64,000 nucleotides of DNA from a phage, in assembly GCA_018175075.1 (NCBI GenBank), contig GCA_018175075.1_4100.1, one strand, 5' to 3'. This document shows, piece after piece, positions 40,686-59,660 of this stretch; position 1 is the stretch's first letter, and every line of letters begins with the position of its first letter. The notes under the pieces were generated by a model, which saw only the letters and a program-made list of their open reading frames with translations, was not told the DNA's origin and ran no database searches. The position numbers and the translations under genes were made by a program.

Positions 40686-40745
40686 TTGCACCGTACTGAT
40701 AAAAGCGTATAATGTTTTACATCGAGAGCGGGAACACTTCCCGCT
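40686..40745 (+). promoter_or_regulatory. class-I early promoter plus leader hairpin
   Basis: TTGCAC, 16 nt, TATAAT, GTTTTACATC, then AGCGGGAA-CAC-TTCCCGCT. Confidence 0.6.
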
Positions 40746-40768
40746 ACACTTTAAAAGAGATGAAAACG

Positions 40769-41131
40769 ATGGCGACTCAAATCAATAAAATCATGCTTAA
40801 CCTGGTAAACTTCCGCGATGAGATGAAAGGTCTTCCGGCTGAAACTGTAAAAATTCACATTGCAGCTTATCGGGAACTTATTGCAATGTTGCCGCTTAAG
40901 CGTGAACAATACGCCGCTACTTTGATGCTGGATTCAATGATCCATGTAATGATCTCAAATGATTTAACGATGGTTTATCAGTACATGGGAGAAAATTTCG
41001 CGGTGTGTAGTAAGCCAGTACCAGGGATGGCAACTACTGAGGAATTGCACGGTTTAAATTTAAAGCAAGATGCATGGGATAATATGCCTCGTTTCCTGGT
41101 ATGGGCTGACAGTGGCAAAATTTACAAATAA
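40769..41131 (+). CDS. hypothetical protein, 120 aa
   Basis: ATG after leader hairpin with AAAGAG RBS; alternative start 40760; track start 40712 lies in the -10 box. Confidence 0.55.
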   Translation: MATQINKIMLNLVNFRDEMKGLPAETVKIHIAAYRELIAMLPLKREQYAATLMLDSMIHVMISNDLTMVYQYMGENFAVCSKPVPGMATTEELHGLNLKQDAWDNMPRFLVWADSGKIYK

Positions 41132-41145
41132 GTTTAATAAAGTAC

Positions 41146-41202
41146 TTGCAAACTATGTTTAATGGCGTATAATGTTTTACATCAGGTGGGGAATAGTTCC
41201 CC
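41146..41202 (+). promoter_or_regulatory. class-I early promoter plus leader hairpin
   Basis: TTGCAA, 16 nt, TATAAT, then GGGGAA-TAG-TTCCCC. Confidence 0.6.
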
Positions 41203-41224
41203 ACTATATAAGAGGATTAAAAAA

Positions 41225-41464
41225 ATGGCTAAATCAAAAATGTTCTTAGGTCACAAAAACAAAACTCATTGGAATGTAAGCCTGTGGATTAATAACGATG
41301 AGGGATTGTATCGGTTGGCCCTGGATTTTATTAACGACAACACTAATCGCAATGATGCGGCCCGTCATATGATGTTATTTTTAGAACAGACTGGACAAGA
41401 TAAAACACCGGACGGATTCAAATATAGCACTACTGCGATCCGTGCGGCGATGGTTGGAATGTAA
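41225..41464 (+). CDS. hypothetical protein, 79 aa (paralog of 43265 gene)
   Basis: AAGAGGA RBS; shares GHKNKTHWNVSLWINN...PDGFKYSTTAIRAAMVGM. Confidence 0.65.
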   Translation: MAKSKMFLGHKNKTHWNVSLWINNDEGLYRLALDFINDNTNRNDAARHMMLFLEQTGQDKTPDGFKYSTTAIRAAMVGM

Positions 41465-41511
41465 TAGAATAGAATTTATTTAAAGTACTATCGCAAAAAA
41501 TGATAGTACTT

Positions 41512-41517
41512 TATAAT
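41512..41517 (+). promoter_or_regulatory. possible -10 element (weak -35)
   Basis: TATAAT 37 nt upstream of ATG 41555. Confidence 0.3.
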
Positions 41518-41554
41518 AGTGTTTTATTCATACACCAACGATAAGGGCAACAGC

Positions 41555-41818
41555 ATGAATATTAAGTATTTTGCGACGCGTGAACAAGCTCGGATCGCTG
41601 CACGCCAGGACGGGGCAACGTTTAAAGATATGGGCGTACAATCGGAACGTGGTAAACGTTGGGCCATTGTAAAGCGTAGTACCGCCAGATCATTACAGTA
41701 CTGGTTAGCGGCCTTAAAAAGTCCCGATAGTGTATCGCGTCGAGTGGTAGAAATAAAGCTCGACCGAAAGGGCAACCGCGTGACCGTGTACCGTACTAAA
41801 AAGATTGCAGTACTATAA
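41555..41818 (+). CDS. hypothetical protein, 87 aa (paralog of 54831 gene)
   Basis: AAGGG RBS; shares FATREQARIAARQDGA and DRKGNRVTVY. Confidence 0.6.
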   Translation: MNIKYFATREQARIAARQDGATFKDMGVQSERGKRWAIVKRSTARSLQYWLAALKSPDSVSRRVVEIKLDRKGNRVTVYRTKKIAVL

Positions 41819-41826
41819 AAAAGTAC

Positions 41827-41886
41827 TTGCAAACTCTGTTTAATGGCGTATAATGTTTTACATCGAGAGCGGGAACACTTCCCGCC
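41827..41886 (+). promoter_or_regulatory. class-I early promoter plus leader hairpin
   Basis: TTGCAA, 16 nt, TATAAT, then AGCGGGAACACTTCCCGC. Confidence 0.6.
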
Positions 41887-41906
41887 TATAACCTGGAGTA
41901 ATAAAA

Positions 41907-42137
41907 ATGACTAATATGTATATGACTGAAGTTAAAACCGTAAAAGATACTACCACAAATAAAGTTACTTACTTACAGCGGATCTGTGGTGTATGGCAAC
42001 GTATCAGCAAATCAAAGTACTATAAATTAACATCATATGCAAACCGTTCTGATTCATTCAGTACTGAAATAAAAGGTAATAAAGTACACCAATACGGCAC
42101 TTATTATTATTACAGCCTGGACGCGATTGCAGTATAA
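41907..42137 (+). CDS. hypothetical protein, 76 aa
   Basis: ATG with GGAG RBS. Confidence 0.55.
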   Translation: MTNMYMTEVKTVKDTTTNKVTYLQRICGVWQRISKSKYYKLTSYANRSDSFSTEIKGNKVHQYGTYYYYSLDAIAV

Positions 42138-42167
42138 GCAGTTTACAAATCTTTACAATTGCCGGTA

Positions 42168-42196
42168 TTGACTTATTTTGTCAGTACTGGCATAAT
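42168..42196 (+). promoter_or_regulatory. sigma70-like promoter with no ORF downstream
   Basis: TTGACT, 17 nt, CATAAT; downstream is repeat element, not coding. Confidence 0.4.
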
Positions 42197-42219
42197 GTAT
42201 TCATTGGCAGATAAGCCGT

Positions 42220-42247
42220 AGCCCATAGGGTGCGGGAGTGTATCTAT
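42220..42247 (+). repeat. AGCCCA(N)AGGGTGC element, forward copy
   Basis: AGCCCATAGGGTGCGGGAGTGTATCTAT; inverted partner GCACCCGGTGGG at 42279-42290. Confidence 0.45.
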
Positions 42248-42384
42248 AGAAAAATTAGTTTAGTATAGTTACAATTGTGCACCCGGTGGGTTAGCTGTTG
42301 TCATGGGGTATATTATGCCAGTACTGGATAGTGCTGTCAATACTTTTTTAATATTCAGTACTGAAAACTATTTTTAAAAAGTAC

Positions 42385-42412
42385 TTGCAAACTATGTTTA
42401 AAGGCGTATAAT
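42385..42412 (+). promoter_or_regulatory. class-I early promoter driving candidate ncRNA
   Basis: TTGCAA, 16 nt, TATAAT, GTTTTACATC. Confidence 0.55.
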
Positions 42413-42418
42413 GTTTTA

Positions 42419-42502
42419 CATCAGGACGGGGAACGAAATAAGTAACTTCCCGTTAAGTAGCCCAGGAGTAAGGCACACGAAAAACTCCCCTGATAAAATA
42501 GT
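42419..42502 (+). ncRNA. candidate structured RNA, copy 1
   Basis: about 80 nt without ATG; internal hairpin CGGGGAA...TTCCCG and terminal ATCAGG...CCTGAT pairing; near-identical copy at 53635. Confidence 0.4.
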
Positions 42503-42530
42503 TTGACAATTGTTTTTAAAAGCGTATAAT
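42503..42530 (+). promoter_or_regulatory. sigma70-like promoter
   Basis: TTGACA, 16 nt, TATAAT. Confidence 0.55.
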
Positions 42531-43174: not shown

Positions 43175-43186
43175 TTTAAAAAGTAC

Positions 43187-43246
43187 TTGCAAACTAAGTT
43201 TAAAAGCGTATAATACTTTATATCGAGGCGGGGAATGGTTCCCCGC
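43187..43246 (+). promoter_or_regulatory. class-I early promoter plus leader hairpin
   Basis: TTGCAA, 16 nt, TATAAT, then GCGGGGAATGGTTCCCCGC. Confidence 0.6.
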
Positions 43247-43264
43247 TCAAACGAGGATTTAAAA

Positions 43265-43504
43265 ATGGCTAGTACTAAAACTTACAACGGTCACAAAAAC
43301 AAAACTCATTGGAATGTAAGCCTTTGGATTAATAACGGTGAGTCATTGTATCGGCTTGCTCAAAGTTGCATCGCACAAAGTAGAACTAAAGATATTGCTG
43401 CGGAATGTATGTACCGCAGATTAAAAGCCAACGGTACTACTACAACGCCGGACGGCTTTAAGTATAGCACTACTGCGATCCGTGCTGCAATGGTTGGAAT
43501 GTAA
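43265..43504 (+). CDS. hypothetical protein, 79 aa (paralog of 41225 gene)
   Basis: GAGGA RBS; conserved C-terminus. Confidence 0.65.
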   Translation: MASTKTYNGHKNKTHWNVSLWINNGESLYRLAQSCIAQSRTKDIAAECMYRRLKANGTTTTPDGFKYSTTAIRAAMVGM

Positions 43505-43517: not shown

Positions 43518-43546
43518 GATAATGGCGGGGAATGGTTCCCGCCTTT
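43518..43546 (+). promoter_or_regulatory. degenerate promoter/leader hairpin, may act as terminator
   Basis: GATAAT then GGCGGGGAATGGTTCCCGCC hairpin and TTT. Confidence 0.4.
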
Positions 43547-44140: not shown

Positions 44141-44326
44141 ATGACAACATTATCTGAGGTTATCCGCGTTCAAGCTGCAAAGGCTGGAATGACTGTTATC
44201 AATGTAGGGATCAAGATTGAGATCTCCCCTAACGAGTTGCAAGGGATTCCCGATCCTACTAGCTGGGATCGTGCTGGGCGAATGATGCGTAATGCTTCAT
44301 TACTGGACGGTACAAAATTTAATTAA
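44141..44326 (+). CDS. hypothetical protein, 61 aa
   Basis: ATG with AGGAG RBS. Confidence 0.5.
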   Translation: MTTLSEVIRVQAAKAGMTVINVGIKIEISPNELQGIPDPTSWDRAGRMMRNASLLDGTKFN

Positions 44327-44333
44327 AAAGTAC

Positions 44334-44392
44334 TTGCAATTAGTTTTTAGTACTGTATAATGGTTTACATCAAAGGGAGAAATGGTTCTCCC
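44334..44392 (+). promoter_or_regulatory. class-I early promoter plus leader hairpin
   Basis: TTGCAA, 16 nt, TATAAT, then GGGAGAAATGGTTCTCCC. Confidence 0.6.
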
Positions 44393-44411
44393 TGGTAATG
44401 AGGAAAATAAA

Positions 44412-44633
44412 ATGGCTAATATCACTACTCTTTCCCAACTGGAAGCACTGGTTAAATCTATGCGGGAACATGCCGACAAAATCGGCGTACAAGATCCAGC
44501 CGTTTGCTTCTGCGACGAAATGAATGATGATACACTGGTAATAGCAGAAGTCCAGGACGTTTCTAACTATTCCTCGCGTTACACTGGCGGCGTAGCAAAT
44601 AAAGGTGACTTCTGTTTATACCTTACAAAATAA
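44412..44633 (+). CDS. hypothetical protein, 73 aa
   Basis: ATG with GAGGAAA RBS. Confidence 0.55.
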   Translation: MANITTLSQLEALVKSMREHADKIGVQDPAVCFCDEMNDDTLVIAEVQDVSNYSSRYTGGVANKGDFCLYLTK

Positions 44634-44637
44634 CAAC

Positions 44638-44668
44638 GCGGGGAGATAATAACTCCCCGTTACTTTTT
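44638..44668 (+). terminator. rho-independent terminator
   Basis: CGCGGGGAG...CTCCCCG hairpin then TTTTT. Confidence 0.6.
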
Positions 44669-44711: not shown

Positions 44712-44801
44712 TTAGTGACTGTTTCGTCTTGATGTAGTAATTATGCCAGTACTGGATGCACTTGTCAACAACTATTTTTCAAATACTTTTTATTAAAATA
44801 C

Positions 44802-44856
44802 TTGCAATTAGTTTTTAAACGCGTATAATGTTTTGCATAGGGGGAGCGGTTCCCCT
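44802..44856 (+). promoter_or_regulatory. class-I early promoter plus leader hairpin
   Basis: TTGCAA, 16 nt, TATAAT, then GGGGAGCGGTTCCCC. Confidence 0.6.
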
Positions 44857-44876
44857 GGTAACTAAGGAATAATAAA

Positions 44877-45113
44877 ATGCTTGAACAAATCAAATCAACG
44901 TCTGCGAATGTAACGGGAACGGTAGCACACTTTACTAGTGATGAATCGCGGGGCGTTCCCTATTGTGCTGTACATGTAAACACTGAGGGTAACTACTGGT
45001 TTACGGTTTACGGATCATATTCATTTGGACGGCCTGGACATCAAAAAATTCTGGATAAAGTACAGCCAACGGGTAAAAATATCACTGCTGAAATGTTTTA
45101 TAAAAAATCATAA
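44877..45113 (+). CDS. hypothetical protein, 78 aa
   Basis: ATG with AAGGAA RBS. Confidence 0.55.
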   Translation: MLEQIKSTSANVTGTVAHFTSDESRGVPYCAVHVNTEGNYWFTVYGSYSFGRPGHQKILDKVQPTGKNITAEMFYKKS

Positions 45114-45118
45114 AGTAC

Positions 45119-45178
45119 TTGATAATAGTTTTTAGTACTGTATAATATTTTACATCGCAAGGGGGGAGCGGTTCCCCC
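45119..45178 (+). promoter_or_regulatory. class-I early promoter plus leader hairpin
   Basis: TTGATA, 16 nt, TATAAT, then GGGGGAGCGGTTCCCCC. Confidence 0.55.
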
Positions 45179-45198
45179 TGGTAACTAAGGATAATCAA

Positions 45199-45498
45199 AT
45201 GAAAATTGCAATCATCGCCCTGGCTTTATCTGTTTCCTCTTTCGCTGTTAATGCGTCGTTAGATGTAAGTAGTGAAAAATTCATTCAGTGCACTGTAGCG
45301 ATGACCAATGAAAGTACTGGCGAGATTGTTTTAAAGGATTTAGAGATCCAGCCAGAAGCATTTAAAAACGGGCCGTTCCATGAAGAAGACGAAAAAGGTA
45401 GCACGACAATTTATTACGATGCAAGTACTAAACGCGGTTCGGTCACTGTTATGGATACTGAGAAAGTAACGCATTCCGGCGTTATTAATTGCCGTTGA
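45199..45498 (+). CDS. secreted protein (signal peptide), 99 aa
   Basis: AAGGA RBS; signal peptide ending VNA/S. Confidence 0.55.
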   Translation: MKIAIIALALSVSSFAVNASLDVSSEKFIQCTVAMTNESTGEIVLKDLEIQPEAFKNGPFHEEDEKGSTTIYYDASTKRGSVTVMDTEKVTHSGVINCR

Positions 45499-45756: not shown

Positions 45757-45778
45757 AGCCCACCTGGTGGGCTTTTTT
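45757..45778 (+). terminator. rho-independent terminator
   Basis: AGCCCACC-TGGTGGGCT hairpin then TTTTTT. Confidence 0.65.
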
Positions 45779-45832
45779 GTTTTTGTAGTATCGTAGTACT
45801 GAGATACTTTGAAAATAGTTTTAAAAAAATAG

Positions 45833-45860
45833 TTGACATTACCGCAAAAAGGCGTAGAAT
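45833..45860 (+). promoter_or_regulatory. sigma70-like promoter
   Basis: TTGACA, 16 nt, TAGAAT. Confidence 0.5.
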
Positions 45861-45866
45861 ATATTA

Positions 45867-45945
45867 CATCAAGACGGGGAGCACTAAGTAGACCGCCAGT
45901 AAGTCGAACGAAAAACTGGACACGTCGAGAAAACTTTGATACACT
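45867..45945 (+). ncRNA. candidate structured RNA, divergent copy 3 (or long 5' leader of 45984 gene)
   Basis: shares CATCARGACGGGGA, AGTAAG and ACGAAAAACT blocks with copies at 42419 and 53635; no ORF. Confidence 0.3.
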
Positions 45946-45983
45946 AATAAACGTAAACTAAACTTTAATTGAGGATTTATAAA

Positions 45984-46487: not shown

Positions 46488-46513
46488 AGCCCACTTATAC
46501 AGTGGGCTTTTTT
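46488..46513 (+). terminator. rho-independent terminator
   Basis: AGCCCACT-TATAC-AGTGGGCT hairpin then TTTTTT. Confidence 0.7.
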
Positions 46514-46667
46514 GTGTTTATCGTTTACCAGGCCACCAGCACCGCCTAGAAACGATTCTAACGTATTAAACTGTTTATCTGATGCATTGCCCTAGCTGGT
46601 GGCGTTAAAGTCGTTAGAATGCGATTGAGTGCGTTTAAAGTATTTTGCAAAAAGTAATAAAAAGTAC

Positions 46668-46725
46668 TTGCACGATTAAGAGATTAGCGTATAATGTTTT
46701 ACATCGAGAGGGGGAAACGGTTCTC
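46668..46725 (+). promoter_or_regulatory. class-I early promoter plus leader hairpin
   Basis: TTGCAC, 16 nt, TATAAT, then GGGGGAAACGGTTCTCC. Confidence 0.55.
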
Positions 46726-46750
46726 CTTCCAAATCAAAGGAATCAAAACA

Positions 46751-46978
46751 ATGGCTATTATCATTACTCGCGTATCTGGTACTACTGGCAACGAACAAGT
46801 AGTTGCAGTCATTACCAACAAGGAAGGTGCGGAATTGCAAAATGCAATGAATACCTGGGCCGTTAATGAGTTCGGTCAGTGGGCAAGTGTAGCATACATT
46901 GAAACCTATCAAGTGCCGTCGATTAGTTTAACTGATTTGGGCGTTGAGCGTATCCTTTGCCTTGATGAATTAAATTAA
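46751..46978 (+). CDS. hypothetical protein, 75 aa
   Basis: ATG with AAAGGA RBS; track start 46694 lies in the -10 box. Confidence 0.55.
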   Translation: MAIIITRVSGTTGNEQVVAVITNKEGAELQNAMNTWAVNEFGQWASVAYIETYQVPSISLTDLGVERILCLDELN

Positions 46979-46986
46979 AAAAGTAC

Positions 46987-47047
46987 TTGCAAAGTAAATC
47001 GAATAAAGTATAATACATTACATCAAGGGGAGAAAATGGTTCTCCCC
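46987..47047 (+). promoter_or_regulatory. class-I early promoter plus leader hairpin
   Basis: TTGCAA, 16 nt, TATAAT, then GGGGAGAAAATGGTTCTCCCC. Confidence 0.6.
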
Positions 47048-47064
47048 ACTACAAGGAAACTAAA

Positions 47065-47208
47065 ATGAAAACTTGTCAATGTGGTCAGAAATCTATTACT
47101 GGTTTAAAGCGGGGCGTTGCTCTTTGCCAGTACCATTATAATTTACAAGTATGGGGTAAAGAATGGGCCGACCAGGTGGAAGCAGCAAAGAAAGCAAAAA
47201 GTAAGTAA
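47065..47208 (+). CDS. small Cys-containing protein, 47 aa
   Basis: ATG with AAGGAAA RBS after leader hairpin; CQCG...CQYH; below track size cutoff. Confidence 0.45.
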   Translation: MKTCQCGQKSITGLKRGVALCQYHYNLQVWGKEWADQVEAAKKAKSK

Positions 47209-48592: not shown

Positions 48593-48802
48593 ATGCTTAC
48601 TGTACAGGATAAGATCGACATCTTAAAGGTTAATATGTATGTGATTGATGCAGTACCTGGTAAAGTATTTGCATACGATGACACCACTGTAAGCGATTTC
48701 TACTATAGCCAGGCCGTGGGGGATCTTTCTGTACAGTCGGTTATTGAAAACGTAGTTAATGCAGCGTATGAGCATTTACTTTCAAATAGTACTTGCAATT
48801 AG
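48593..48802 (+). CDS. hypothetical protein, 69 aa
   Basis: ATG with AAAGG RBS. Confidence 0.5.
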   Translation: MLTVQDKIDILKVNMYVIDAVPGKVFAYDDTTVSDFYYSQAVGDLSVQSVIENVVNAAYEHLLSNSTCN

Positions 48803-48852
48803 TTTTTAAACGCGTATAATGTTTTACATGAAGGGGAGAAATGATTCTCCCC
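48793..48852 (+). promoter_or_regulatory. class-I early promoter plus leader hairpin
   Basis: TTGCAA, 16 nt, TATAAT, then GGGGAGAAATGATTCTCCCC. Confidence 0.6.
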
Positions 48853-48871
48853 ACTAATTAAGGAATATGAA

Positions 48872-49018
48872 ATGAAAGCATCAAAAAAGAGTACTAACAA
48901 GAAAGCACGTTCAACCTTAGATGGGGTATTCCCTTTACGTTTCGTTGATGAAGTGGTTTCCTACCCGCCTGGCCTTACTCCTGAGATGGTAGAAAGTTTG
49001 CGTAAATCTAAAAAATAG
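48872..49018 (+). CDS. small basic protein, 48 aa
   Basis: ATG with AAGGAA RBS after leader hairpin; below track size cutoff. Confidence 0.45.
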   Translation: MKASKKSTNKKARSTLDGVFPLRFVDEVVSYPPGLTPEMVESLRKSKK

Positions 49019-49021
49019 TAC

Positions 49022-51786: not shown

Positions 51787-52143
51787 ATGGGAATACAACA
51801 TATCACGCGTACTACTGACAATGGCGAGATCACTGGTTATCAGGTACAGGGCAAAGTAGCACAATTGCAGTACTGGTTTGTTAAACGTGGAATCATTGCA
51901 CCGGATCTTGATTATGACCGTGTTGCTTTCATTGATTCTCTTTATGTTGATCCTGATAGTCGGGGCAATGGTGAAGGTAACGAATTAATGAATGCCTTTA
52001 TCGATGCCGCCGATGATTCAGATTGTATCATCTTAGAATGCGATACGGGAGAAGATAACGCCTTTAATCTTAAAGAATGGTACGAAGGTTTCGGATTCGA
52101 GGTATTGATAGATAGTGAATATCCTATCATGATTTTATCATAG
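51787..52143 (+). CDS. putative GNAT-family acetyltransferase-like protein, 118 aa
   Basis: GAGGA RBS; SRGNGEGNELMNAFIDAA and WYEGFGFE resemble GNAT motifs. Confidence 0.45.
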   Translation: MGIQHITRTTDNGEITGYQVQGKVAQLQYWFVKRGIIAPDLDYDRVAFIDSLYVDPDSRGNGEGNELMNAFIDAADDSDCIILECDTGEDNAFNLKEWYEGFGFEVLIDSEYPIMILS

Positions 52144-52146
52144 TAC

Positions 52147-52203
52147 TTGCATTTAGTTTTCAGTACTGTTATAGTACTTACATCAAGGGGAAACATCTTC
52201 CCC
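52147..52203 (+). promoter_or_regulatory. class-I early promoter plus leader hairpin
   Basis: TTGCAT, 17 nt, TATAGT, then GGGGAAACATCTTCCCC. Confidence 0.55.
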
Positions 52204-52221
52204 TACTAAGAGGAAATGAAA

Positions 52222-52410
52222 ATGGAAAACTTATCAAGTATTTTAGTACAAGATGATTTCGGTAATCCTGGAAGTGCTATCATAGTTCGGGGCAATAAAG
52301 CAACGTTTGTTATTGCTGGTGGACCCGTACAGCGTAGCATTAAAAATAATGCTGTTACCATTAATAATGTACGCTATCGCTTAGATAAAGAATTAATTCA
52401 TAAACTGTAA
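52222..52410 (+). CDS. hypothetical protein, 62 aa
   Basis: ATG with AAGAGGAAA RBS (alternative start 52216). Confidence 0.5.
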   Translation: MENLSSILVQDDFGNPGSAIIVRGNKATFVIAGGPVQRSIKNNAVTINNVRYRLDKELIHKL

Positions 52411-52437: not shown

Positions 52438-52761
52438 ATGTACATTCATACTACTATCACAAAGGAAGTCCGTTGCCAGTTCGAAAGTATTCCGGGCGTA
52501 TGTTTCATCACTGGTACGTTTTCCCCTGGTGATCGTGATAATCCAGTACTGTTACAATTACGCCATCCATCATGGGATAAAGCATTTGATCTACCGTTGA
52601 ATGAATTCGCAACTACTGCTGAAAAGTACATTAAAAATATTCGCGAGAATGATCGACTATTCATTAATGCTTTTAGTGATTCCGCGTTAAGCGAGATCCA
52701 CGGTGTATTGGTTGCAATCATGGAATCAATGGAGAAAACTAAATTCAAACAAGGTGAATAA
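52438..52761 (+). CDS. hypothetical protein, 107 aa
   Basis: ATG with AGAGGA RBS. Confidence 0.55.
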   Translation: MYIHTTITKEVRCQFESIPGVCFITGTFSPGDRDNPVLLQLRHPSWDKAFDLPLNEFATTAEKYIKNIRENDRLFINAFSDSALSEIHGVLVAIMESMEKTKFKQGE

Positions 52762-52767
52762 AAACTA

Positions 52768-52827
52768 TTGACAAGATAATCTAGTACTGTATAATAAGTT
52801 ACATGAAGGGGAGAAATGATTCTCCCC
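52768..52827 (+). promoter_or_regulatory. early promoter plus leader hairpin
   Basis: TTGACA, 16 nt, TATAAT, then GGGGAGAAATGATTCTCCCC. Confidence 0.6.
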
Positions 52828-52844
52828 ACTGAGAGGAAAGAAAA

Positions 52845-53057
52845 ATGCAAGGTCAACTAATCGTTCGTAAATGGTCTGATACTAACGCTAAACCGTGGGA
52901 TGTACAATACATCGGCCCCAATGGTGAATCCAGATATCAACCAGGTGTAACGCATAGTACTGAGCAATTCGCCGCCGCTCATCGTGAACGTCTGTTACAA
53001 TCAATGCAGCAAGGTTCCGGTGAAAAATTCATTCAGGATCATTGGCTGAAAGATTAA
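52845..53057 (+). CDS. hypothetical protein, 70 aa
   Basis: ATG with GAGAGGAAA RBS. Confidence 0.55.
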   Translation: MQGQLIVRKWSDTNAKPWDVQYIGPNGESRYQPGVTHSTEQFAAAHRERLLQSMQQGSGEKFIQDHWLKD

Positions 53058-53064
53058 AAAGTAC

Positions 53065-53121
53065 TTGCACAGTACTGAATAAAGTGTATAATGTTTTATA
53101 TCGGAAGGGGAATAGTTCCCC
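53065..53121 (+). promoter_or_regulatory. class-I early promoter plus leader hairpin
   Basis: TTGCAC, 16 nt, TATAAT, then GGGGAATAGTTCCCC. Confidence 0.6.
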
Positions 53122-53143
53122 TCCCAACAAAGAGGAAAGTATA

Positions 53144-53317
53144 ATGATCCAAGTAGAATTATCAGTACTGAAAGATCTGTTTTATCGGTTAGGTACTAAT
53201 GGCGAGTATCCTAAAAGTGATACCGCAAAACTTTTTGTATCACTCGACTTATGGCAACGCGAACAATTAGTAATGTCCTGGCGTAAAGGTAAAGCAGATC
53301 GCGAGGTGAAAGCATGA
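53144..53317 (+). CDS. hypothetical protein, 57 aa
   Basis: ATG with AGAGGAAA RBS; track ORF 53042 extends into the promoter. Confidence 0.5.
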   Translation: MIQVELSVLKDLFYRLGTNGEYPKSDTAKLFVSLDLWQREQLVMSWRKGKADREVKA

Positions 53318-53463: not shown

Positions 53464-53477
53464 AAATAATTGAAAAA

Positions 53478-53502
53478 GGGATTGACTCCGGTCAGTCCCT
53501 TT
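53478..53502 (+). terminator. rho-independent terminator
   Basis: GGGATTGACTCCGGTCAGTCCC hairpin then TTT. Confidence 0.65.
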
Positions 53503-53557: not shown

Positions 53558-53600
53558 TGTTTGCTGGTGGCTAGTACTGAAAACTATTTTAAAAAAGTAC

Positions 53601-53628
53601 TTGCATTGTACTTAGAATAAAGTATAAT
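53601..53628 (+). promoter_or_regulatory. class-I early promoter driving candidate ncRNA
   Basis: TTGCAT, 16 nt, TATAAT, GTTTTACATC. Confidence 0.55.
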
Positions 53629-53634
53629 GTTTTA

Positions 53635-53715
53635 CATCAGGACGGGGAACGAAACAAGTAACCCCGTTAAGTAGTCCAGGAGTAAGACATACGAAAAACT
53701 CCCCTGATAAAATAG
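53635..53715 (+). ncRNA. candidate structured RNA, copy 2
   Basis: near-identical to 42419-42502 with stem changes that keep pairing (CGGGG...CCCCG); no ORF. Confidence 0.4.
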
Positions 53716-53716
53716 T

Positions 53717-53744
53717 TTGACAATAGAAAGTAAACGAGTATAAT
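53717..53744 (+). promoter_or_regulatory. sigma70-like promoter
   Basis: TTGACA, 16 nt, TATAAT. Confidence 0.55.
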
Positions 53745-53777: not shown

Positions 53778-54053
53778 ATGCGGATTCTACTGACAGCTAA
53801 CGAAATCGAACAAGTACTGACTACTAACCTGGAAGACTGGAAACGTGAAGCAGATATCCAGGCGGTTCAACAGCTTAACGATGAGTTAACGCCGGATGAC
53901 TTAAGCAAGATTGTAGATCCTCAATTCTACGAAGATATCCACGACACCGCGTTAAGCGTCGAGGATGTACTAGATAAGCACTACATTGATATTGATTTGC
54001 AGGTTTACGGTCGTAAAAACTTTATCACTATTCACGACATTTACAATAATTAA
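53778..54053 (+). CDS. hypothetical acidic protein, 91 aa
   Basis: ATG with AAGGAAA RBS. Confidence 0.55.
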   Translation: MRILLTANEIEQVLTTNLEDWKREADIQAVQQLNDELTPDDLSKIVDPQFYEDIHDTALSVEDVLDKHYIDIDLQVYGRKNFITIHDIYNN

Positions 54054-54056
54054 GTA

Positions 54057-54118
54057 TTGACAAAGTATCTTAGTACTGTATAATAGTTTACATCGAGTGA
54101 GGGGAAACGGTTCCCCTC
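54057..54118 (+). promoter_or_regulatory. early promoter plus leader hairpin (about 90 bp module, copy 1)
   Basis: TTGACA, 16 nt, TATAAT, then GAGGGGAAACGGTTCCCCTC. Confidence 0.6.
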
Positions 54119-54141
54119 CTAACAAAGAGAGAGAAATAAAA

Positions 54142-54324
54142 ATGGCTAAGTGCACTATCTGCAAGAAAGAAATAGTATTAGTTCCAAGTGCCCGTGAACG
54201 TGCCGCTCGGTTCGGTGGCAAAGCGTCAGACTATACAAAAATGTTTACTACCCATGCAGCTTGCCAGGTAGCAAAACGTTCACAAGAAAGCGTAGAATTA
54301 ATGCGTAAACTTTCCAAAAAATAA
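54142..54324 (+). CDS. small Cys-containing protein, 60 aa
   Basis: AGAGAGA RBS; CTIC...HAAC. Confidence 0.5.
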   Translation: MAKCTICKKEIVLVPSARERAARFGGKASDYTKMFTTHAACQVAKRSQESVELMRKLSKK

Positions 54325-54327
54325 GTA

Positions 54328-54388
54328 TTGACAAAGTATCTTAGTACTGTATAATAGTTTACATCAAGTGAGGGGAATGGTTCCCCTC
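54328..54388 (+). promoter_or_regulatory. early promoter plus leader hairpin (module copy 2)
   Basis: TTGACA, 16 nt, TATAAT, then GAGGGGAATGGTTCCCCTC. Confidence 0.6.
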
Positions 54389-54411
54389 CTAACTAAAAGA
54401 GAGAAATAAAA

Positions 54412-54735
54412 ATGGCTATGATCCTTGCCCAGAAAGTAGAATTGAAAATTGTAACCTCATTTGACATTAACGTTAATCGGTGGACTGATTCACACGGCAA
54501 TACTTACCACTCTTGCTACGTGTCTGCGTTAATTGGCGACCGCTGGGAAGACCTGGGACATGAAACCTTTACATACGGTTACGGCACACAAGGCGAATAC
54601 ACGGGCTTGGAGATCATTAAAGAAACCGTTATAGGTTTCAACCCGAAAGAAAAAGTTATTCACCAAATCGAAAAAGAGATTAACAAAGAAATAACAGTTC
54701 GATACAACGATGTAAAACGTAAGAAAGACATGTAA
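54412..54735 (+). CDS. hypothetical protein, 107 aa (paralog of 47590 gene)
   Basis: AGAGAGAAA RBS; conserved motifs. Confidence 0.6.
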   Translation: MAMILAQKVELKIVTSFDINVNRWTDSHGNTYHSCYVSALIGDRWEDLGHETFTYGYGTQGEYTGLEIIKETVIGFNPKEKVIHQIEKEINKEITVRYNDVKRKKDM

Positions 54736-55248: not shown

Positions 55249-55273
55249 GGCGGGATCAGTTCCCGCCTTTTTT
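55249..55273 (+). terminator. rho-independent terminator
   Basis: GGCGGGA-TCAGT-TCCCGCC hairpin then TTTTTT. Confidence 0.7.
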
Positions 55274-56731: not shown

Positions 56732-56746
56732 AAAAGATTAAAAAAG

Positions 56747-56771
56747 GGATTGACTCCGGTCAGTCCCTTTG
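56747..56771 (+). terminator. rho-independent terminator
   Basis: GGGATTGACTCCGGTCAGTCCC hairpin then TTT. Confidence 0.65.
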
Positions 56772-56830: not shown

Positions 56831-56871
56831 TATATAAGTATTCAGTACTGGAAACTATTTTTAAAAAGTAC

Positions 56872-56931
56872 TTGCATTGTACTTAGAATCAAGTATAATG
56901 TTTTATATCGAGAGGGGGAAATGGTTCTCCC
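56872..56931 (+). promoter_or_regulatory. class-I early promoter plus leader hairpin
   Basis: TTGCAT, 16 nt, TATAAT, then GGGGGAAATGGTTCTCCC. Confidence 0.6.
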
Positions 56932-56953
56932 TGGTACATTAAGGAATAAAATC

Positions 56954-57175
56954 ATGACTACAATGACTTGCATTCACGCTTCAAACCTGCTTAATGATGC
57001 GGCCTTTAATGTTGATTCAGAATATCAATGTTATCGGGATGAAAATAAAAAAGTTTTTGTAGTTGATAATAATGGTTTCCATATTGAATTACAATCCGGC
57101 TTCACTGGTGTTGATGGTAAATCAGTATGGGGCGTACAGGATGATAAAGGTACATATCATTTTAAACGTAATTAA
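56954..57175 (+). CDS. hypothetical protein, 73 aa
   Basis: ATG with AAGGAA RBS; track ORF 56750 runs through terminator and promoter. Confidence 0.55.
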   Translation: MTTMTCIHASNLLNDAAFNVDSEYQCYRDENKKVFVVDNNGFHIELQSGFTGVDGKSVWGVQDDKGTYHFKRN

Positions 57176-57178
57176 GTA

Positions 57179-57237
57179 TTGACAAAGTATATCAGTACTG
57201 TATAATAGTTTACATCAAGGGGAGAATAGTTCTCCCC
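57179..57237 (+). promoter_or_regulatory. early promoter plus leader hairpin
   Basis: TTGACA, 16 nt, TATAAT, then GGGGAGAATAGTTCTCCCC. Confidence 0.6.
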
Positions 57238-57261
57238 ACACCAATAAAAGGAAACAAAATT

Positions 57262-57534
57262 ATGTCCAGCTACTCCGCTACTATGATCATTAAAGATATG
57301 AACGGTAATCCTACTTCTGCTGGTGGATCATTTGGAAACATTAATTTAGATGGTCGGTTATCCATGCAATCAGCCATTGATGCAGCTAAAGAAGTTTTTA
57401 AGAATGAATGTACTGTAAGCAAGCTGGATTATATGGGATTCGCTATCGAGAAAACTAATCGTTTTGTGAACTACAAAAAGCCTATGATGATTGATACTAA
57501 CCTGAAAGCTAACGAAGTGGAATACTTATTATGA
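57262..57534 (+). CDS. hypothetical protein, 90 aa
   Basis: ATG with AAAGGAAA RBS. Confidence 0.55.
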   Translation: MSSYSATMIIKDMNGNPTSAGGSFGNINLDGRLSMQSAIDAAKEVFKNECTVSKLDYMGFAIEKTNRFVNYKKPMMIDTNLKANEVEYLL

Positions 57535-57722: not shown

Positions 57723-57729
57723 AAAGTAC

Positions 57730-57790
57730 TTGCATTGTAGTTAGATTAACGTATAATGTTTTATATCGAGAGGGGGAAATGGTTTCCCCT
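57730..57790 (+). promoter_or_regulatory. class-I early promoter plus leader hairpin
   Basis: TTGCAT, 16 nt, TATAAT, then GGGGGAAATGGTTTCCCC. Confidence 0.6.
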
Positions 57791-57809
57791 CAAGTCCAGG
57801 AGATACACC

Positions 57810-58073
57810 ATGAACACTATCGAAATCACTATCAATGCACACGTATACGACAACGTAGTACTGCAAACTACTATGACCGCTAATGATACCAGTACTTTGC
57901 GGAATACTGTTATTAGTGCCGTATGTGCTGCAATCGGTGATGTCGCCCTGGAAAATGCAAAACACGTAAACGATGGTTTCACTATGTGCAAACGTGATAA
58001 CGCAAAACATATCATCGTGGAAGGTTACGGCGGTGTAGAATTTAATGTTTATATGAAAAAAGTACTTGCATAA
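57810..58073 (+). CDS. hypothetical protein, 87 aa
   Basis: ATG with AGGAGA RBS; track start 57756 lies in the -10 box. Confidence 0.55.
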   Translation: MNTIEITINAHVYDNVVLQTTMTANDTSTLRNTVISAVCAAIGDVALENAKHVNDGFTMCKRDNAKHIIVEGYGGVEFNVYMKKVLA

Positions 58074-58122
58074 TAACTAAAACAAAGTATAATGTTTTGC
58101 ATAGGGGGAGATATCCTCCCCC
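58066..58122 (+). promoter_or_regulatory. class-I early promoter plus leader hairpin
   Basis: TTGCAT, 16 nt, TATAAT, then GGGGGAGATATCCTCCCCC; -35 overlaps upstream stop. Confidence 0.6.
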
Positions 58123-58140
58123 ACTAAAAGGAGTAATAAA

Positions 58141-58365
58141 ATGGCTAACTTTGATGAACTGATGCGGGAAGTAGCTACCCTGGCAGAAGAGAAGAAATCA
58201 TTCGATTCTATCTATAACACCGCTCACCGTGATTCAGTACTGGCATGTACTCAGGATCAAAAAGATGAACTAATCGCCACCTATCATGAAGCATGGAAGT
58301 ACTACCGCCAATGGGAGAAAGAAGAAAGCGAGTCTACCATCAACGGCATCAATAATCTAATCTAA
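58141..58365 (+). CDS. hypothetical protein, 74 aa
   Basis: ATG with AAGGAG RBS. Confidence 0.55.
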   Translation: MANFDELMREVATLAEEKKSFDSIYNTAHRDSVLACTQDQKDELIATYHEAWKYYRQWEKEESESTINGINNLI

Positions 58366-58384
58366 AAGTTTTATTTCAGTACTA

Positions 58385-58413
58385 TTGACATAGCTTGATA
58401 GTACTGATGTAAT
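58385..58413 (+). promoter_or_regulatory. class-II promoter variant
   Basis: TTGACA, 17 nt, TGTAAT. Confidence 0.45.
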
Positions 58414-58441
58414 AACTTTACTAACTACAAGGGGAAACATC

Positions 58442-58699
58442 ATGGAACAATTCACACAATATCGGGTAAATCCTCAAGCTATGGCCTACGTAGAAGACCA
58501 TAAAACGTTACCAGTACTGCAACCAGTTAAAGGCCATATCTATCGTGGCCTTGCCTGGGATACGGCCCAGGATGGATATAAAACCGTCGCAGTGGGGATG
58601 TATTGCGGGAATGGTGAATGGTTTGATCCTAACAATCCGATTGCACTTGACAGTACTGAAAAAATGAAATGGGCCGACTACATCGAAGATATTTCATAA
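58442..58699 (+). CDS. hypothetical protein, 85 aa
   Basis: ATG with AAGGGGAAA RBS. Confidence 0.55.
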   Translation: MEQFTQYRVNPQAMAYVEDHKTLPVLQPVKGHIYRGLAWDTAQDGYKTVAVGMYCGNGEWFDPNNPIALDSTEKMKWADYIEDIS

Positions 58700-58706
58700 A
58701 AACTAT

Positions 58707-58767
58707 TTGACAGTACTAACCAGTAATGTATAATGTTTTACATAGAGCGGGGGAATAGTTCTCCCGC
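58707..58767 (+). promoter_or_regulatory. early promoter plus leader hairpin
   Basis: TTGACA, 16 nt, TATAAT, then GCGGGGGAATAGTTCTCCCGC. Confidence 0.6.
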
Positions 58768-58789
58768 CAATAGTTTGGAGTAAAACATT

Positions 58790-58990
58790 ATGTCTATCGC
58801 TATCGCCCTGGTTGAAGTACTGAAAGAAGCTAAAGCCAACCTTATCGATGTACAGATTAAGGAATTGCAAAACGGCTTAATCGGCTGTACTTGTACCGCT
58901 GGCGGTGCGGCAGACTATCGAGAACACGAATCACTCGAATCACTGGTTCGGTATCTTACCATGATCGTTGATGATTGGAGAATCATCTAA
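58790..58990 (+). CDS. hypothetical protein, 66 aa
   Basis: ATG with GGAG RBS. Confidence 0.55.
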   Translation: MSIAIALVEVLKEAKANLIDVQIKELQNGLIGCTCTAGGAADYREHESLESLVRYLTMIVDDWRII

Positions 58991-59009
58991 CAAAAAAAGA
59001 ATAAAAAAA

Positions 59010-59034
59010 GGGATTGACTCCGGTCAGTCCCTTT
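59010..59034 (+). terminator. rho-independent terminator
   Basis: GGGATTGACTCCGGTCAGTCCC hairpin then TTT. Confidence 0.65.
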
Positions 59035-59061
59035 GCTATTATATACGCATAGACAAAAACT

Positions 59062-59087
59062 AGCCCACAGGGTGCATAAGTGTATCC
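59062..59087 (+). repeat. AGCCCACAGGGTGC element, forward copy
   Basis: AGCCCACAGGGTGCATAAGTGTATCC, followed by GCTGGTGG at 59122. Confidence 0.45.
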
Positions 59088-59156
59088 AAAATATATAGTT
59101 AATAACGGTGAGTAACTATCTGCTGGTGGAGTGAAAACTATTAATAAAAAAAAGTA

Positions 59157-59185
59157 TTGACAAAGTATATCAGTACTGCAATAAT
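59157..59185 (+). promoter_or_regulatory. sigma70-like promoter
   Basis: TTGACA, 17 nt, AATAAT. Confidence 0.45.
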
Positions 59186-59238
59186 GTATCTCGTAGGGCG
59201 GCAATGGTGCGACGGCCCACAAAGTTAGGAGATTCAAA

Positions 59239-59571
59239 ATGACTACTTCAATCGCTATCGTTAAAGCTTTCATCCGTACTAATGTTTCCTCTGTATTCAT
59301 CGACGGCCTCGACCGTAACGTAGAATACTCAATCATTATCGCACAAACGGCAAACGGTTCTCGGTACATCCTGAATGATAGTGAAGCAAATCACTACTAC
59401 TTCACTAAAGCCACTGGCTTTAAACGCATCGATGCTGATGTAGTATACGCTAAGATGAATAAGCTGGTAGACAAGATTAACGCGAAAGGTACTATCGATT
59501 TACAGTACTGGACCGAAACCGATCCAGAATATGGATCTCACCGCTACCTGAATCCAGGTATTAAAATGTAA
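59239..59571 (+). CDS. hypothetical protein, 110 aa
   Basis: ATG with TAGGAGA RBS. Confidence 0.55.
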   Translation: MTTSIAIVKAFIRTNVSSVFIDGLDRNVEYSIIIAQTANGSRYILNDSEANHYYFTKATGFKRIDADVVYAKMNKLVDKINAKGTIDLQYWTETDPEYGSHRYLNPGIKM

Positions 59572-59578
59572 AAAGTAC

Positions 59579-59638
59579 TTGCATAGTACTTAGAATCAAG
59601 TATAATGTTTTACATAGAGAGGGGGAAATGGTTCTCCC
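59579..59638 (+). promoter_or_regulatory. class-I early promoter plus leader hairpin
   Basis: TTGCAT, 16 nt, TATAAT, then GGGGGAAATGGTTCTCCC. Confidence 0.6.
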
Positions 59639-59660
59639 TCCTACTTTAAGGAGTATTATC

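Follow-up and report, generated by a model that had tools for sequence, protein, structure and literature searches.

Early promoters with a covarying stem-loop in the transcribed leader, repeated through the direct terminal repeat of an Asteriusvirus jumbo coliphage

Short stable hairpins at the 5' end of highly expressed messages, with an open and strong ribosome-binding site (RBS) downstream, are familiar from the class III (phi10) transcripts of phage T7 and from Escherichia coli ompA. Arrays of early genes for host takeover are equally familiar from the terminal redundancy of SPO1 and the pre-early (first-step-transfer) region of T5. The subject here is a stretch of phage DNA of 64,000 nucleotides (GenBank assembly GCA_018175075.1, contig GCA_018175075.1_4100.1; the whole stretch is called the window below), in which a sigma70-type promoter, a G-rich leader hairpin and an RBS recur as one early cassette between 40.7 and 59.7 kb. 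The closest described elements are the promoter-early stem-loops (PeSLs) of the T4-like phages RB49/phi1, T4/PST and KVP40/nt-1 (Arbiol et al. 2010, PMC2839356; Comeau et al. 2014, PMC4122927). A PeSL has its stem-loop inside or ahead of the promoter, in most cases between the -35 and -10 elements or across them, in others upstream of the -35 or just before the start site, and this stem-loop is described as a terminator or attenuator (PMC2839356, PMC4122927). RpoD-like promoters have also been reported near or in the terminal repeat of phage CBB (PMC5259590).

The cassettes of the window share much with PeSLs. Both are repeated units of ~70-100 bp with an AT-rich upstream part, a near-consensus sigma70 promoter, a G(n)-loop-C(n) stem that admits G-U (G-T) pairs, a Shine-Dalgarno (SD) sequence and a start codon; both cluster by ORFans in hyperplastic regions, and in both cases indels or replacements between close relatives fall at the units. 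They differ in placement: here the stem-loop starts 8-14 nt past the -10 hexamer and is uniformly transcribed (~+6 to +25), outside the position that defines a PeSL. The genomes differ too, being those of Rak2-like jumbo, rV5-like and phi92-like myoviruses, with an array that fills the direct terminal repeat (DTR). Because the hairpin lies inside its own transcript and lacks a T-run, it cannot efficiently terminate transcription from the promoter to which it belongs.

The full cassette is present in 24 copies. Each consists of AAAGTAC and a -35 element, TTGCA(A/T/C) or TTGACA, followed by 16 nt, TATAAT, the block GTTTTACAT, the hairpin, 17-24 unpaired nt with the SD sequence, and an ATG; an A-tract stands upstream of the -35. 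TATAAT with a GTTTTACAT-like block occurs at 29 sites on the + strand, and 52170 (TATAGT) makes 30. A perfect hairpin of 7-9 bp, then SD and ATG, follows at 24 of these. Three others (42407, 45855 and 53623) begin a longer structured non-coding leader that opens with a similar stem, and at the last three (39426, 44085 and 51752) no such hairpin lies downstream of the promoter. The stems have energies of -9 to -15 kcal/mol, and in all 24 the 5' arm is G-rich and the 3' arm C-rich. The copies are:

40679-40771, + strand: cassette 1; -10 at 40708; hairpin 40727-40745 (AGCGGGAA cac TTCCCGCT); ATG 40769
41139-41227, + strand: cassette 2; -10 at 41168; hairpin 41185-41205 (GGTGGGGAA tag TTCCCCACT); ATG 41225
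41820-41909, + strand: cassette 3; -10 at 41849; hairpin 41869-41885; ATG 41907
43180-43267, + strand: cassette 4; -10 at 43209; hairpin 43227-43247 (GGCGGGGAA tgg TTCCCCGCT); ATG 43265
44327-44414, + strand: cassette 5; -10 at 44356; hairpin 44374-44393 (AGGGAGAA atgg TTCTCCCT); ATG 44412
44795-44879, + strand: cassette 6; -10 at 44824; hairpin 44838-44857 (two G-U pairs); ATG 44877
45112-45201, + strand: cassette 7; -35 TTGATA; -10 at 45141; hairpin 45160-45179; ATG 45199
46661-46753, + strand: cassette 8; -10 at 46690; hairpin 46708-46729 (two G-U pairs); ATG 46751
46980-47067, + strand: cassette 9; -10 at 47009; hairpin 47027-47047; ATG 47065
48786-48874, + strand: cassette 10; -10 at 48815; hairpin 48833-48852 (GGGGAGAA atga TTCTCCCC); ATG 48872
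49015-49102, + strand: cassette 11; -10 at 49044; hairpin 49062-49081; ATG 49100
49602-49690, + strand: cassette 12; -10 at 49631; hairpin 49650-49668 (AGGGGAAA cgg TTTCCCCT); ATG 49688
50036-50125, + strand: cassette 13, TTGACA type; -10 at 50065; hairpin 50083-50102; ATG 50123
52140-52224, + strand: cassette 14; -10 TATAGT at 52170; hairpin 52186-52204; ATG 52216/52222
52761-52847, + strand: cassette 15, TTGACA type; -10 at 52790; hairpin 52808-52827; ATG 52845
53058-53146, + strand: cassette 16; -10 at 53087; hairpin 53106-53122; ATG 53144
54050-54144, + strand: cassette 17, TTGACA type; -10 at 54079; hairpin 54099-54118; ATG 54142
54321-54414, + strand: cassette 18, TTGACA type; -10 at 54350; hairpin 54370-54388; ATG 54412
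56865-56956, + strand: cassette 19; -10 at 56894; hairpin 56913-56932 (G-U at the covarying position); ATG 56954
57172-57264, + strand: cassette 20, TTGACA type; -10 at 57201; hairpin 57219-57237; ATG 57262
57723-57812, + strand: cassette 21; -10 at 57752; hairpin 57770-57791; ATG 57810
58059-58143, + strand: cassette 22; -10 at 58088; hairpin 58104-58122 (GGGGGAG atatc CTCCCCC); ATG 58141
58700-58792, + strand: cassette 23, TTGACA type; -10 at 58729; hairpin 58747-58767; ATG 58790
59572-59663, + strand: cassette 24; -10 at 59601; hairpin 59619-59640; ATG 59661

The -35 block AAAGTACTTGCA, with at most two mismatches, occurs 56 times against 9.9 +/- 3.5 in shuffled sequence, and the -10 block TATAATGTTTTACAT, with at most three, 41 times against 13.2 +/- 3.7. 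Exact copies of both blocks are found on the + strand only, all within 39.4-59.6 kb. A repeat-family search independently recovered the cassette as a family of 91 nt. In a census of + strand hairpins over the whole 64 kb (stem of at least 7 bp with at least 4 GC pairs), 63 were counted, and 24 of them begin 8-14 nt (mode 12) past a -10 hexamer, against ~1 expected. This motif excess, together with the 24 full cassettes, confirms as real the repeated early promoter, G-rich leader hairpin and RBS that an initial annotation of this DNA had described in 40.7-59.7 kb. Its details required adjustment. The hairpin had been placed 10-15 nt after GTTTTACAT and in fact begins 1-8 nt after it, that is, 8-14 nt after TATAAT; the -35 core TTGCA(A/T/C) stands, although not as the sole form, as TTGACA is a second flavour; and a cassette before most cistrons was an overstatement, a full one being found at ~24 of ~52 genes.

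Some sigma70 promoter does stand ahead of ~40 of the ~52 genes; the DTR holds ~40 promoters of this type, and 11 promoters in the region match the consensus at 12 of 12 positions. A consensus scan of the region found ~9 further strong promoters, several of them 12/12, with short A/C-rich leaders and no hairpin. Leaders of this kind mark a second strong-promoter family of the DTR, TATTGACAT-N-GATAGTACTGG-CATAAT and others (47251, 47543 and 50378; also 42525, 50639, 53739, 54781, 55562 and 55838), three members of which are near-identical across ~45 nt upstream.

To analyze pairing in the leader, the cassette copies were aligned. A plain MAFFT alignment of the 24 copies gave no structure in RNAalifold, since gaps fell inside the 5' arm and destroyed the register; it was replaced by a structure-anchored, N-padded alignment of the same copies (A2). 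In A2, 91.5% of cells pair, compared with 52-70% when the register is slid, and 6 of the 9 pairs carry changes on both sides. Scored for covariation, A2 reaches 0.398, while shuffles give 0.187 +/- 0.020 (0/500), which bears out the claim of the initial annotation that the two arms change together. A covariance model (R1) then gathered cassette copies from the window and related loci. In alignment A4 (49 copies, six sources) double changes appear at 8 of 9 pairs, and all five measures exceed every shuffle (0/500). The largest alignment, A5, comprises 126 R1 matches, 98 of them distinct, from twelve sources. Here 89.9% of cells pair in register, against 54-74% for slid registers, with substitutions at 7 of 9 pairs and not one unpaired cell in the inner six pairs of the 98 distinct copies. 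One pair is GC in 52 copies, AU in 24 and GU in 20, and the next outer pairs occur as GC, AU, CG, UA and GU. Covariation was thus analysed on 24, 49 and 98 copies; pairing beats the shuffles with 24 and 49 copies, and the slid registers with 24 and 98.

The kind of substitution identifies the molecule on which selection acts. Over the inner seven pairs of A5 there are 34 G-U pairs and 2 non-standard cells, and A-C is essentially absent. Because each G-U is a C-A mismatch on the opposite strand, the pairing is that of the + strand RNA and not of a DNA palindrome. The loops vary freely, with at least 25 types of 3-5 nt among the 98 copies, and outside promoter block and stem A2 and A5 show nothing conserved. 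In the stem itself, conservation is strong at the apical G-A-A/U-U-C pairs among Asteriusvirus, Munch and Hallingskeid copies. These patterns show a stem-loop kept by selection for + strand RNA pairing, which in many phage lineages holds a constant spacing to the promoter.

The same arrangement extends well beyond the window. The 91-nt cassette query matches the Salmonella jumbo phages Munch, 7t3 and SE_PL, Klebsiella phages fENko-Kae01 and K64-1, Erwinia phage Hallingskeid, Yersinia phage fHe-Yen9-03, and the ~140-kb Vequintavirinae and Stephanstirmvirinae. The leader stems of K64-1 (GGGATACA-tag-TGTATCCC, GGAGATTCCA-gaataa-TGGAATCTCC and GGGAATGAAT-tat-TCATTCCC), fHe-Yen9-03 (GGGTAAGC-aatacc-GCTTACCC), the phi92-like ESCO32 (GGGCGGCA-atag-TGCCGCTC) and the rV5-like A73 (GGCGGGGA-gtgt-TTCCCCGCC) are unrelated in sequence, stand at the same distance from the promoter, and come from phages too diverged for R1, which makes their support independent of that model. 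Unrelated stems at this position are also found in Hallingskeid, Munch and IMG/VR contigs. Structure and position of the predicted hairpin are conserved, and its sequence is not. As read off the fetched loci, with approximate denominators, hairpins follow 10 of ~30 promoters in Munch, 9 of ~20 in Hallingskeid, 8 of ~18 in K64-1, 4 of 6 in A73, 5 of 9 in ESCO32 and ~3 of ~20 in fHe-Yen9-03. A second promoter family at the fetched Munch locus (AGTACTT-TATAAT-ACTTACATC-AATTAAGCAAAGAG) has the hairpin in no copy. Scanning IMG/VR with exact 15-mers yielded, for the most part, isolated chance matches, with real cassettes in three loci only (L019, L027 and L082). Four ~146-kb records labelled 'Campylobacter phage' (A150, A145, C3 and A110a) match the cassette in the manner of ~140-147 kb Escherichia phages, and their host label may be wrong.

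The block after TATAAT reads GTTTTAC-A-T, with Y-A-T conserved at bases 7-9. Sigma70 promoters start 7 +/- 1 nt past the -10 hexamer, at a purine after a pyrimidine, so the predicted +1 is the A of YAT. With this start, the 5' tail ahead of the stem would measure 5.1 +/- 1.3 nt (range 1-7), pairing would reach within 1-2 nt of the 5' end in some copies, and the hairpin (17-22 nt) would span about +6 to +25. From its end to the ATG there are mostly 17-24 nt, with the SD between, in a leader of 40-50 nt overall. A start downstream of the hairpin, as judged from the predicted promoter, cannot be reconciled with the position of the -10. When 12 leaders were folded as RNA, minimum free energies (MFE) ran from -10.9 to -15.8 kcal/mol, the hairpin was the sole stable feature, and SD and AUG were unpaired in both MFE and centroid structures.

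Several known element types were considered for this hairpin and rejected. All 24 lack a T-run downstream, having tails such as ACTAA, GGTAA and CTAAC, and a terminator scan called 0 of 24 while calling four other hairpins of the DTR (44638, 45757, 46488 and 55249). On sequence, GC-rich hairpins without a U-tract in 24 of 24 cases are not intrinsic terminators. An SD/anti-SD switch fails because the 3' arm pairs with its own SD no better than with those of other copies (-4.78 against -4.72 kcal/mol; permutation p = 0.39). RNase III cuts a duplex of about two helical turns, for which stems of just 7-9 bp are too short. The hairpin is no N4-type DNA hairpin promoter, as it lies downstream of a canonical sigma70 promoter, and no CsrA site, having no GGA in the loop. 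Rfam, searched over 38.5-64 kb with E values up to 1, gave two sub-threshold chance matches only, and no family was assigned. The folds and alignments show a leader hairpin that by prediction is not a terminator, leaves the RBS open and has no conserved loop. The contrasting hairpins, and a partial cassette, are:

44638-44660, + strand: terminator-like hairpin with T-run, contrast class; others at 45757-45773, 46488-46508 and 55249-55267 (terminator scan)
50839-50864, + strand: weaker fifth terminator candidate, from the hairpin census, outside the terminator-scan calls
43524-43543, + strand: partial cassette, hairpin and SD without a recognisable family promoter, ahead of ORF (open reading frame) 43562; repeat family D5, 79% identity to 43227-43259

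The source phage is an Asteriusvirus (121Q/PBECO4-like) jumbo coliphage: window positions 40.6-48.6 kb share 91-97% identity with Asteriusvirus WPEC5, EC.P1, SP27, PBECO4 and 121Q, whose genomes measure 347-386 kb. The record of vB_Ec-M-J marks positions 1-21525 as 'Direct Terminal Repeat'; the opening bases of this feature align to window position 39039, and its end corresponds to ~60490. DTRs of 20.7-21.0 kb have experimental support in two phages of the same genus, fEgEco12 and Sharanji (PMC13070987, PMC11895373).

39039 to ~60490, + strand: direct terminal repeat, ~21.5 kb, mapped from the vB_Ec-M-J annotation; holds all cassettes of the window

Given this mapping, the promoter array at 40686-59640 is the gene-bearing part of the DTR, a coincidence absent from the initial annotation. 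The repeat begins with 1.6 kb of non-coding DNA (39039-40660), and beyond ~60.5 kb the ORFs are closely packed and lack cassette-type promoters. The genes behind the cassettes are ORFans of 47-133 aa, and related genomes cover just 51-93% of the array region. Asteriusvirus genomes recorded with a single copy of the repeat give 10-16 match sites for the cassette query, and most of the Asteriusvirus records listed with a match near the genome end give 26-30; these counts are consistent with confinement to the terminal repeat.

Taken as a whole, the cassette is an early expression unit of ~95 bp. It opens with an A-rich/AGTACT block, a near-consensus sigma70 -35 (TTGCAA or TTGACA), a 16-nt spacer and TATAAT, continues with the AT-rich discriminator GTTTTAC, the predicted Y-A-T start, a ~5-nt tail and the stem-loop of 7-9 bp, and closes with 17-24 unstructured nt carrying the SD and the ATG of a small ORFan. 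Because cassettes fill the 21.5-kb DTR, one copy of each would enter the cell whichever genome end goes first, and host RNA polymerase could transcribe it at once upon entry. The stem-loop would act as a generic cis-acting structural module of the 5' untranslated region (UTR): with a ribosome on the RBS, covering ~20 nt upstream of the AUG, it would leave almost no naked single-stranded leader. mRNA lifetime and translation might thus be raised or standardised whatever ORF follows, as with the T7 phi10 and ompA 5' stem-loops. Equally compatible is an insulator variant, in which the hairpin would prevent base pairing between the first 25 nt and a swapped-in ORF, a role that would suit a cassette that moves between genes. 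We put this combined stabiliser/insulator reading at about even chances of being right.

Several points weigh against it. Protective 5'-terminal stem-loops are usually quoted with a tail of 2-4 nt, and ~5 nt should be enough for RppH and for the 5' sensor of RNase E. RNase E is also reported to bypass simple orthogonal stem-loops readily while scanning (Richards and Belasco, PMC9943677). About one third of the DTR promoters have no leader hairpin, among them the ~9 equally strong ones with short leaders, and the ortholog of ORF 46751 in 121Q has a hairpin-less leader. The hairpin is hence not essential for expression. Transcription start sites are predictions from sequence, many of the aligned copies are paralogues, and alignments derived from a covariance model lean towards the model structure. 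Folding z-scores of the 12 leaders are all negative yet modest (-0.7 to -3.7), since runs of G and of C fold readily in shuffled sequence too. A predicted tail longer than the classically protective one, together with the reported RNase E bypass, weakens pure 5'-end protection in particular. The initial annotation had argued for a functional RNA structure at the 5' end of early mRNAs. A selected RNA structure is upheld by the compensatory changes, the G-U pairs and the unrelated stems at the same position, but none of the three functions it named emerges as the answer: pure 5'-end protection is weakened on the grounds just given, RNase III processing falls on stem length, and a sequence-specific regulator is argued against by the loops and stems.

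That last idea can be put broadly: the hairpin may be a tag recognised in trans, by a phage-encoded antiterminator of boxB/N type, by a repressor of translation, or by a nuclease that either turns off the early mRNAs as a class or leaves them intact. One structure at a fixed place in two dozen co-regulated early transcripts would fit such a tag, as would the strongly conserved apical G-A-A/U-U-C pairs of Asteriusvirus, Munch and Hallingskeid, the dozens of ORFans of no assigned function encoded in the DTR, and the GGAG in many stems, GGAG being the target of T4 RegB. However, GGAG is missing from many copies and base-paired where present, no boxA-like partner is conserved, the hairpin is dispensable for some orthologs, and the loops come in at least 25 sequences of 3-5 nt. 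A site for a sequence-specific regulator is unlikely because of these highly variable loops and because stems differ wholly between genera, being unrelated in K64-1, Yersinia and phi92-like phages, and we regard the trans-acting tag overall as an unlikely explanation. To the same low degree we would credit a hairpin serving as a class-wide 'identity tag' of early phage mRNAs, exempting them from 5'-end-dependent decay triggered by phage or defence, or passing them on to a phage factor that would time their shut-off or bring about antitermination. If true, such a tag would have been retained in several unrelated families of large coliphages (Rak2-like jumbo, rV5-like and phi92-like).

Action on transcription or on upstream RNA seems a little less probable again. 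The hairpin would then attenuate or terminate read-through from the cassette upstream, as has been proposed for PeSLs; or block 3' exonucleases and so stabilise the preceding cistron once processed (like repetitive extragenic palindromes or the T7 R site); or prevent backtracking or cause a pause close to the promoter. For the stem-loops of RB49/phi1 PeSLs, termination has been seen with a reporter (PMC2839356). The DTR has 4 true terminators, plus the fifth candidate, for ~52 genes, so read-through RNAs must carry hairpins between cistrons, and the partial cassette at 43524 retains its hairpin without a promoter. Against this, a T-run follows 0 of 24 hairpins, a terminating hairpin would abort the transcript of its own promoter too, and position is fixed to the start site rather than to the upstream stop codon and is kept in distant genera with unrelated stems.

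It is improbable that the hairpin has no present function and is a passenger of a duplicating promoter cassette. Many copies are indeed close paralogues, and the hairpin is absent at ~1/3 of the promoters and in one ortholog, but a passenger would not be expected to show 0 broken inner pairs among the 98 distinct copies when 7 of 9 pairs carry substitutions, G-U intermediates, and independent stem sequences at the same position in at least 6 genera. Most improbable is a role as DNA, either as a palindromic operator for a dimeric repressor at +6 to +25 or as a by-product of a purine-rich initial transcribed region that aids escape: GGGGAA-N3-5-TTCCCC is a near-palindrome just past the start, the G-rich arm is always 5' and transcribed regions of strong T5 promoters do affect promoter strength, but the 34 G-U pairs of the inner seven positions, where non-standard cells number just 2, break DNA symmetry while keeping RNA pairing, changes are compensatory, half-sites are not conserved, stems are unrelated in other genera, and the A/C-rich hairpin-less leaders of equally consensus promoters make a G-rich start region unnecessary.

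If the stabilising or insulating leader hairpin is functional, the cassette would be a compact, naturally optimised module of promoter, 5' UTR and RBS, with which large coliphages of several lineages bring dozens of host-takeover ORFans into expression within minutes of infection. It would also offer a clean and readily mutated test of what a short 5' stem-loop with a tail of a few nt does to the fate of an E. coli mRNA, a setting in which current RNase E scanning models predict little effect. The cassette model R1 can meanwhile annotate early transcription units where the genes are all 'hypothetical'.

The cassettes also mark many of the places at which gene content changes. Chained BLAST alignments of the window DTR against 121Q, vB_Ec-M-J and A4 were used to locate homology breakpoints, and the cassette interval was defined as -45 to +65 around the -10, which covers 17.4% of the region. 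Breakpoints fall in cassettes in 27 of 44 cases (p ~1e-10), or 19 of 32 when counted uniquely (p ~1e-7), although this interval is nearly the whole intergenic spacer, and whole-gene exchange at intergenic boundaries alone could yield the enrichment. The gene at 44141-44326, which has its own degenerate promoter, is absent in 121Q and A4, with the junction in the upstream part of a cassette ('GTTTTAAA|AGTACT'). 121Q carries an additional gene, whose insertion point lies precisely between the 'GTTTTACATC' start block and the ORF found in the window after hairpin 46708-46729. On these alignments the breakpoint test shows whole-gene exchange at cassettes; crossing-over inside cassettes is not proved by it. 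Cassette copies would provide homology for the gain, loss and swapping of single ORFans, and the view of PeSLs as regulatory cassettes that shuffle genes would extend beyond T4-like phages, into terminal repeats.

The genes at 41225-41461 and 43265-43501 are paralogous, with DNA 84-89% identical over two stretches. Each stands behind its own cassette, which points to a joint duplication of cassette and gene. The first copy, to which the Pfam scan was confined, matches DUF7249.

Two long structured leaders are followed by a second promoter, and a third copy has diverged:

42378-42530, + strand: long-leader variant; -10 at 42407, ~80-nt structured non-coding leader with a related first stem, then a promoter (-10 at 42525) with a hairpin-less leader
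53594-53744, + strand: second copy of the long-leader and tandem-promoter variant; -10 at 53623 and 53739
45826-45968, + strand: third long structured leader, diverged; -10 TAGAAT at 45855; repeat family D15

The leader RNA (42407-42500, 53623-53715 and 45855-45968; in locus L004, 5599-5700) has the form CAGGACGGGGAAC...GTAACTTCCCGTTAAGTAGCCCAGGAGTAAGG...CTCCCCTGAT over ~80 nt and is followed by a second consensus promoter. Long leader and tandem promoter are also kept together in the rV5-like phage A73. The ~80-nt leader may be a small RNA or a regulatory leader.

The hexamer AGTACT, part of the upstream promoter block, is present in 283 copies in the 64 kb against 21.6 expected from base composition, a 13-fold excess where the next palindrome reaches 2.3-fold. 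Across the whole window CAGTACTG occurs 64 times against 0.97 in shuffles. AGTACT (for example in 39378-40628 and at 44348-44353) lies in coding and non-coding DNA and in both gene orientations, and in promoters it keeps two fixed registers, one against the -35 (19 of 42) and one against the -10 (18 of 42). A phage factor that binds or modifies DNA could recognise this hexamer. In the 3.5 kb to the right of the DTR (60491-64000), its count is 0 where ~15 would be expected at the density of the window. The ORFs of that block are small, overlap tightly and lack promoters, and the block may be of different origin or regulation.

At the left of the DTR, a consensus promoter (-10 at 39426) within the non-coding 39039-40660 would drive a structured RNA without an ORF, the first 70 nt of which have an MFE of -18.5. 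The same segment holds a run of overlapping repeats of 8-bp period (GGATGGCT/GACGGCT) at 39816-39943 and duplicated 40-nt units (40562-40601 equals 40615-40654). In the relative PA5oct, highly expressed non-coding RNAs lie within the terminal repeat (PMC7318152).

Elements of the classical PeSL type are present as well, with the form AAAGGG(A)TTGAC-ttcg-GTCAG(C/T)CCCTTT-gcTATTAT and a hairpin across the -35 and spacer. Six lie outside the DTR (4220-4243, 7459-7484, 8223-8244, 10066-10091, 11151-11178 and 16067-16094) and four inside it (49480-49507, 53475-53502, 56743-56770 and 59007-59034). They are terminator-like, with A and T runs; the -35 TTGAC(T) is in the 5' arm and loop, and the -10 lies 17 nt downstream. 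The fHe-Yen9-03 record annotates the same elements as promoters. As both classes occur in one window with different hairpin placement, cassettes and PeSLs are distinct and coexist. A further unit, ...A(A/G)CCCA(C/T)AGGGTGC(A/G)nnAGTGTATC, lies 20-30 nt downstream of promoters, often of PeSL type, at 40292, 42228, 49548, 51203, 53538, 56811 and 59070, and recurs in loci L001, L002, L003 and L005. It contains the palindrome ACCC-aca-GGGT and no ORF. All Rak2-like genera sampled have it, the rV5-like and phi92-like loci do not, and it has no Rfam match; it may be a small RNA or an operator.

Beyond PeSLs, three groups of known systems bear comparison with the cassette. Small RNA structures in promoter-proximal early transcripts recall lambda nut/boxB and HK022 put. 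Lambda boxB differs in having a conserved loop read by N, a boxA partner and two sites per genome, where here the loops are free, no partner is seen and there are 24 copies; HK022 put has two larger stem-loops. A lambda nut site (boxA plus boxB) was rejected, with at least 25 loops among 98 copies and no conserved linear partner. The SPO1, T5 and CBB arrays resemble the window in their many strong host-type early promoters, with one or a few very small genes of no assigned function behind each, and in their long direct terminal repeat; they differ in that, to our knowledge, no conserved covarying leader hairpin has been described for them. Of the genome papers of rV5, CBB, phAPEC6, fEgEco12, Sharanji and PA5oct, some predict sigma70-like promoters and others are silent on promoters, and a conserved leader hairpin is mentioned in none; a literature search found no transcriptome or start-site data for these phages.

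The closest functional parallels are T7 phi10 and ompA. The T7 phi10 leader folds at its 5' end to GGGAGACC-ACAAC-GGUUUCCC, which shares with the cassettes a G-rich 5' arm, a C-rich 3' arm and a G-U pair, and its ACAAC loop also occurs in Munch and Hallingskeid copies. As in T7 and ompA, the stem-loop is formed by the mRNA strand within the 5' UTR (covariation with G-U and no A-C). The T7 and ompA stems differ in standing at or within ~2 nt of the 5' end, against a predicted tail of ~5 nt (1-7) here; for the cassette hairpin a stabilising effect is a proposal; T7 uses a phage RNA polymerase, the cassettes host sigma70 polymerase. Promoter/stem-loop cassettes and 5' stabilising hairpins are thus both established concepts, and the cassette is a variant and not a new kind of element. 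It is probably best read, from the features compared here, as a PeSL-like mobile early-expression cassette whose stem-loop has its place in the transcribed leader, where it would stabilise or insulate the 5' UTR.

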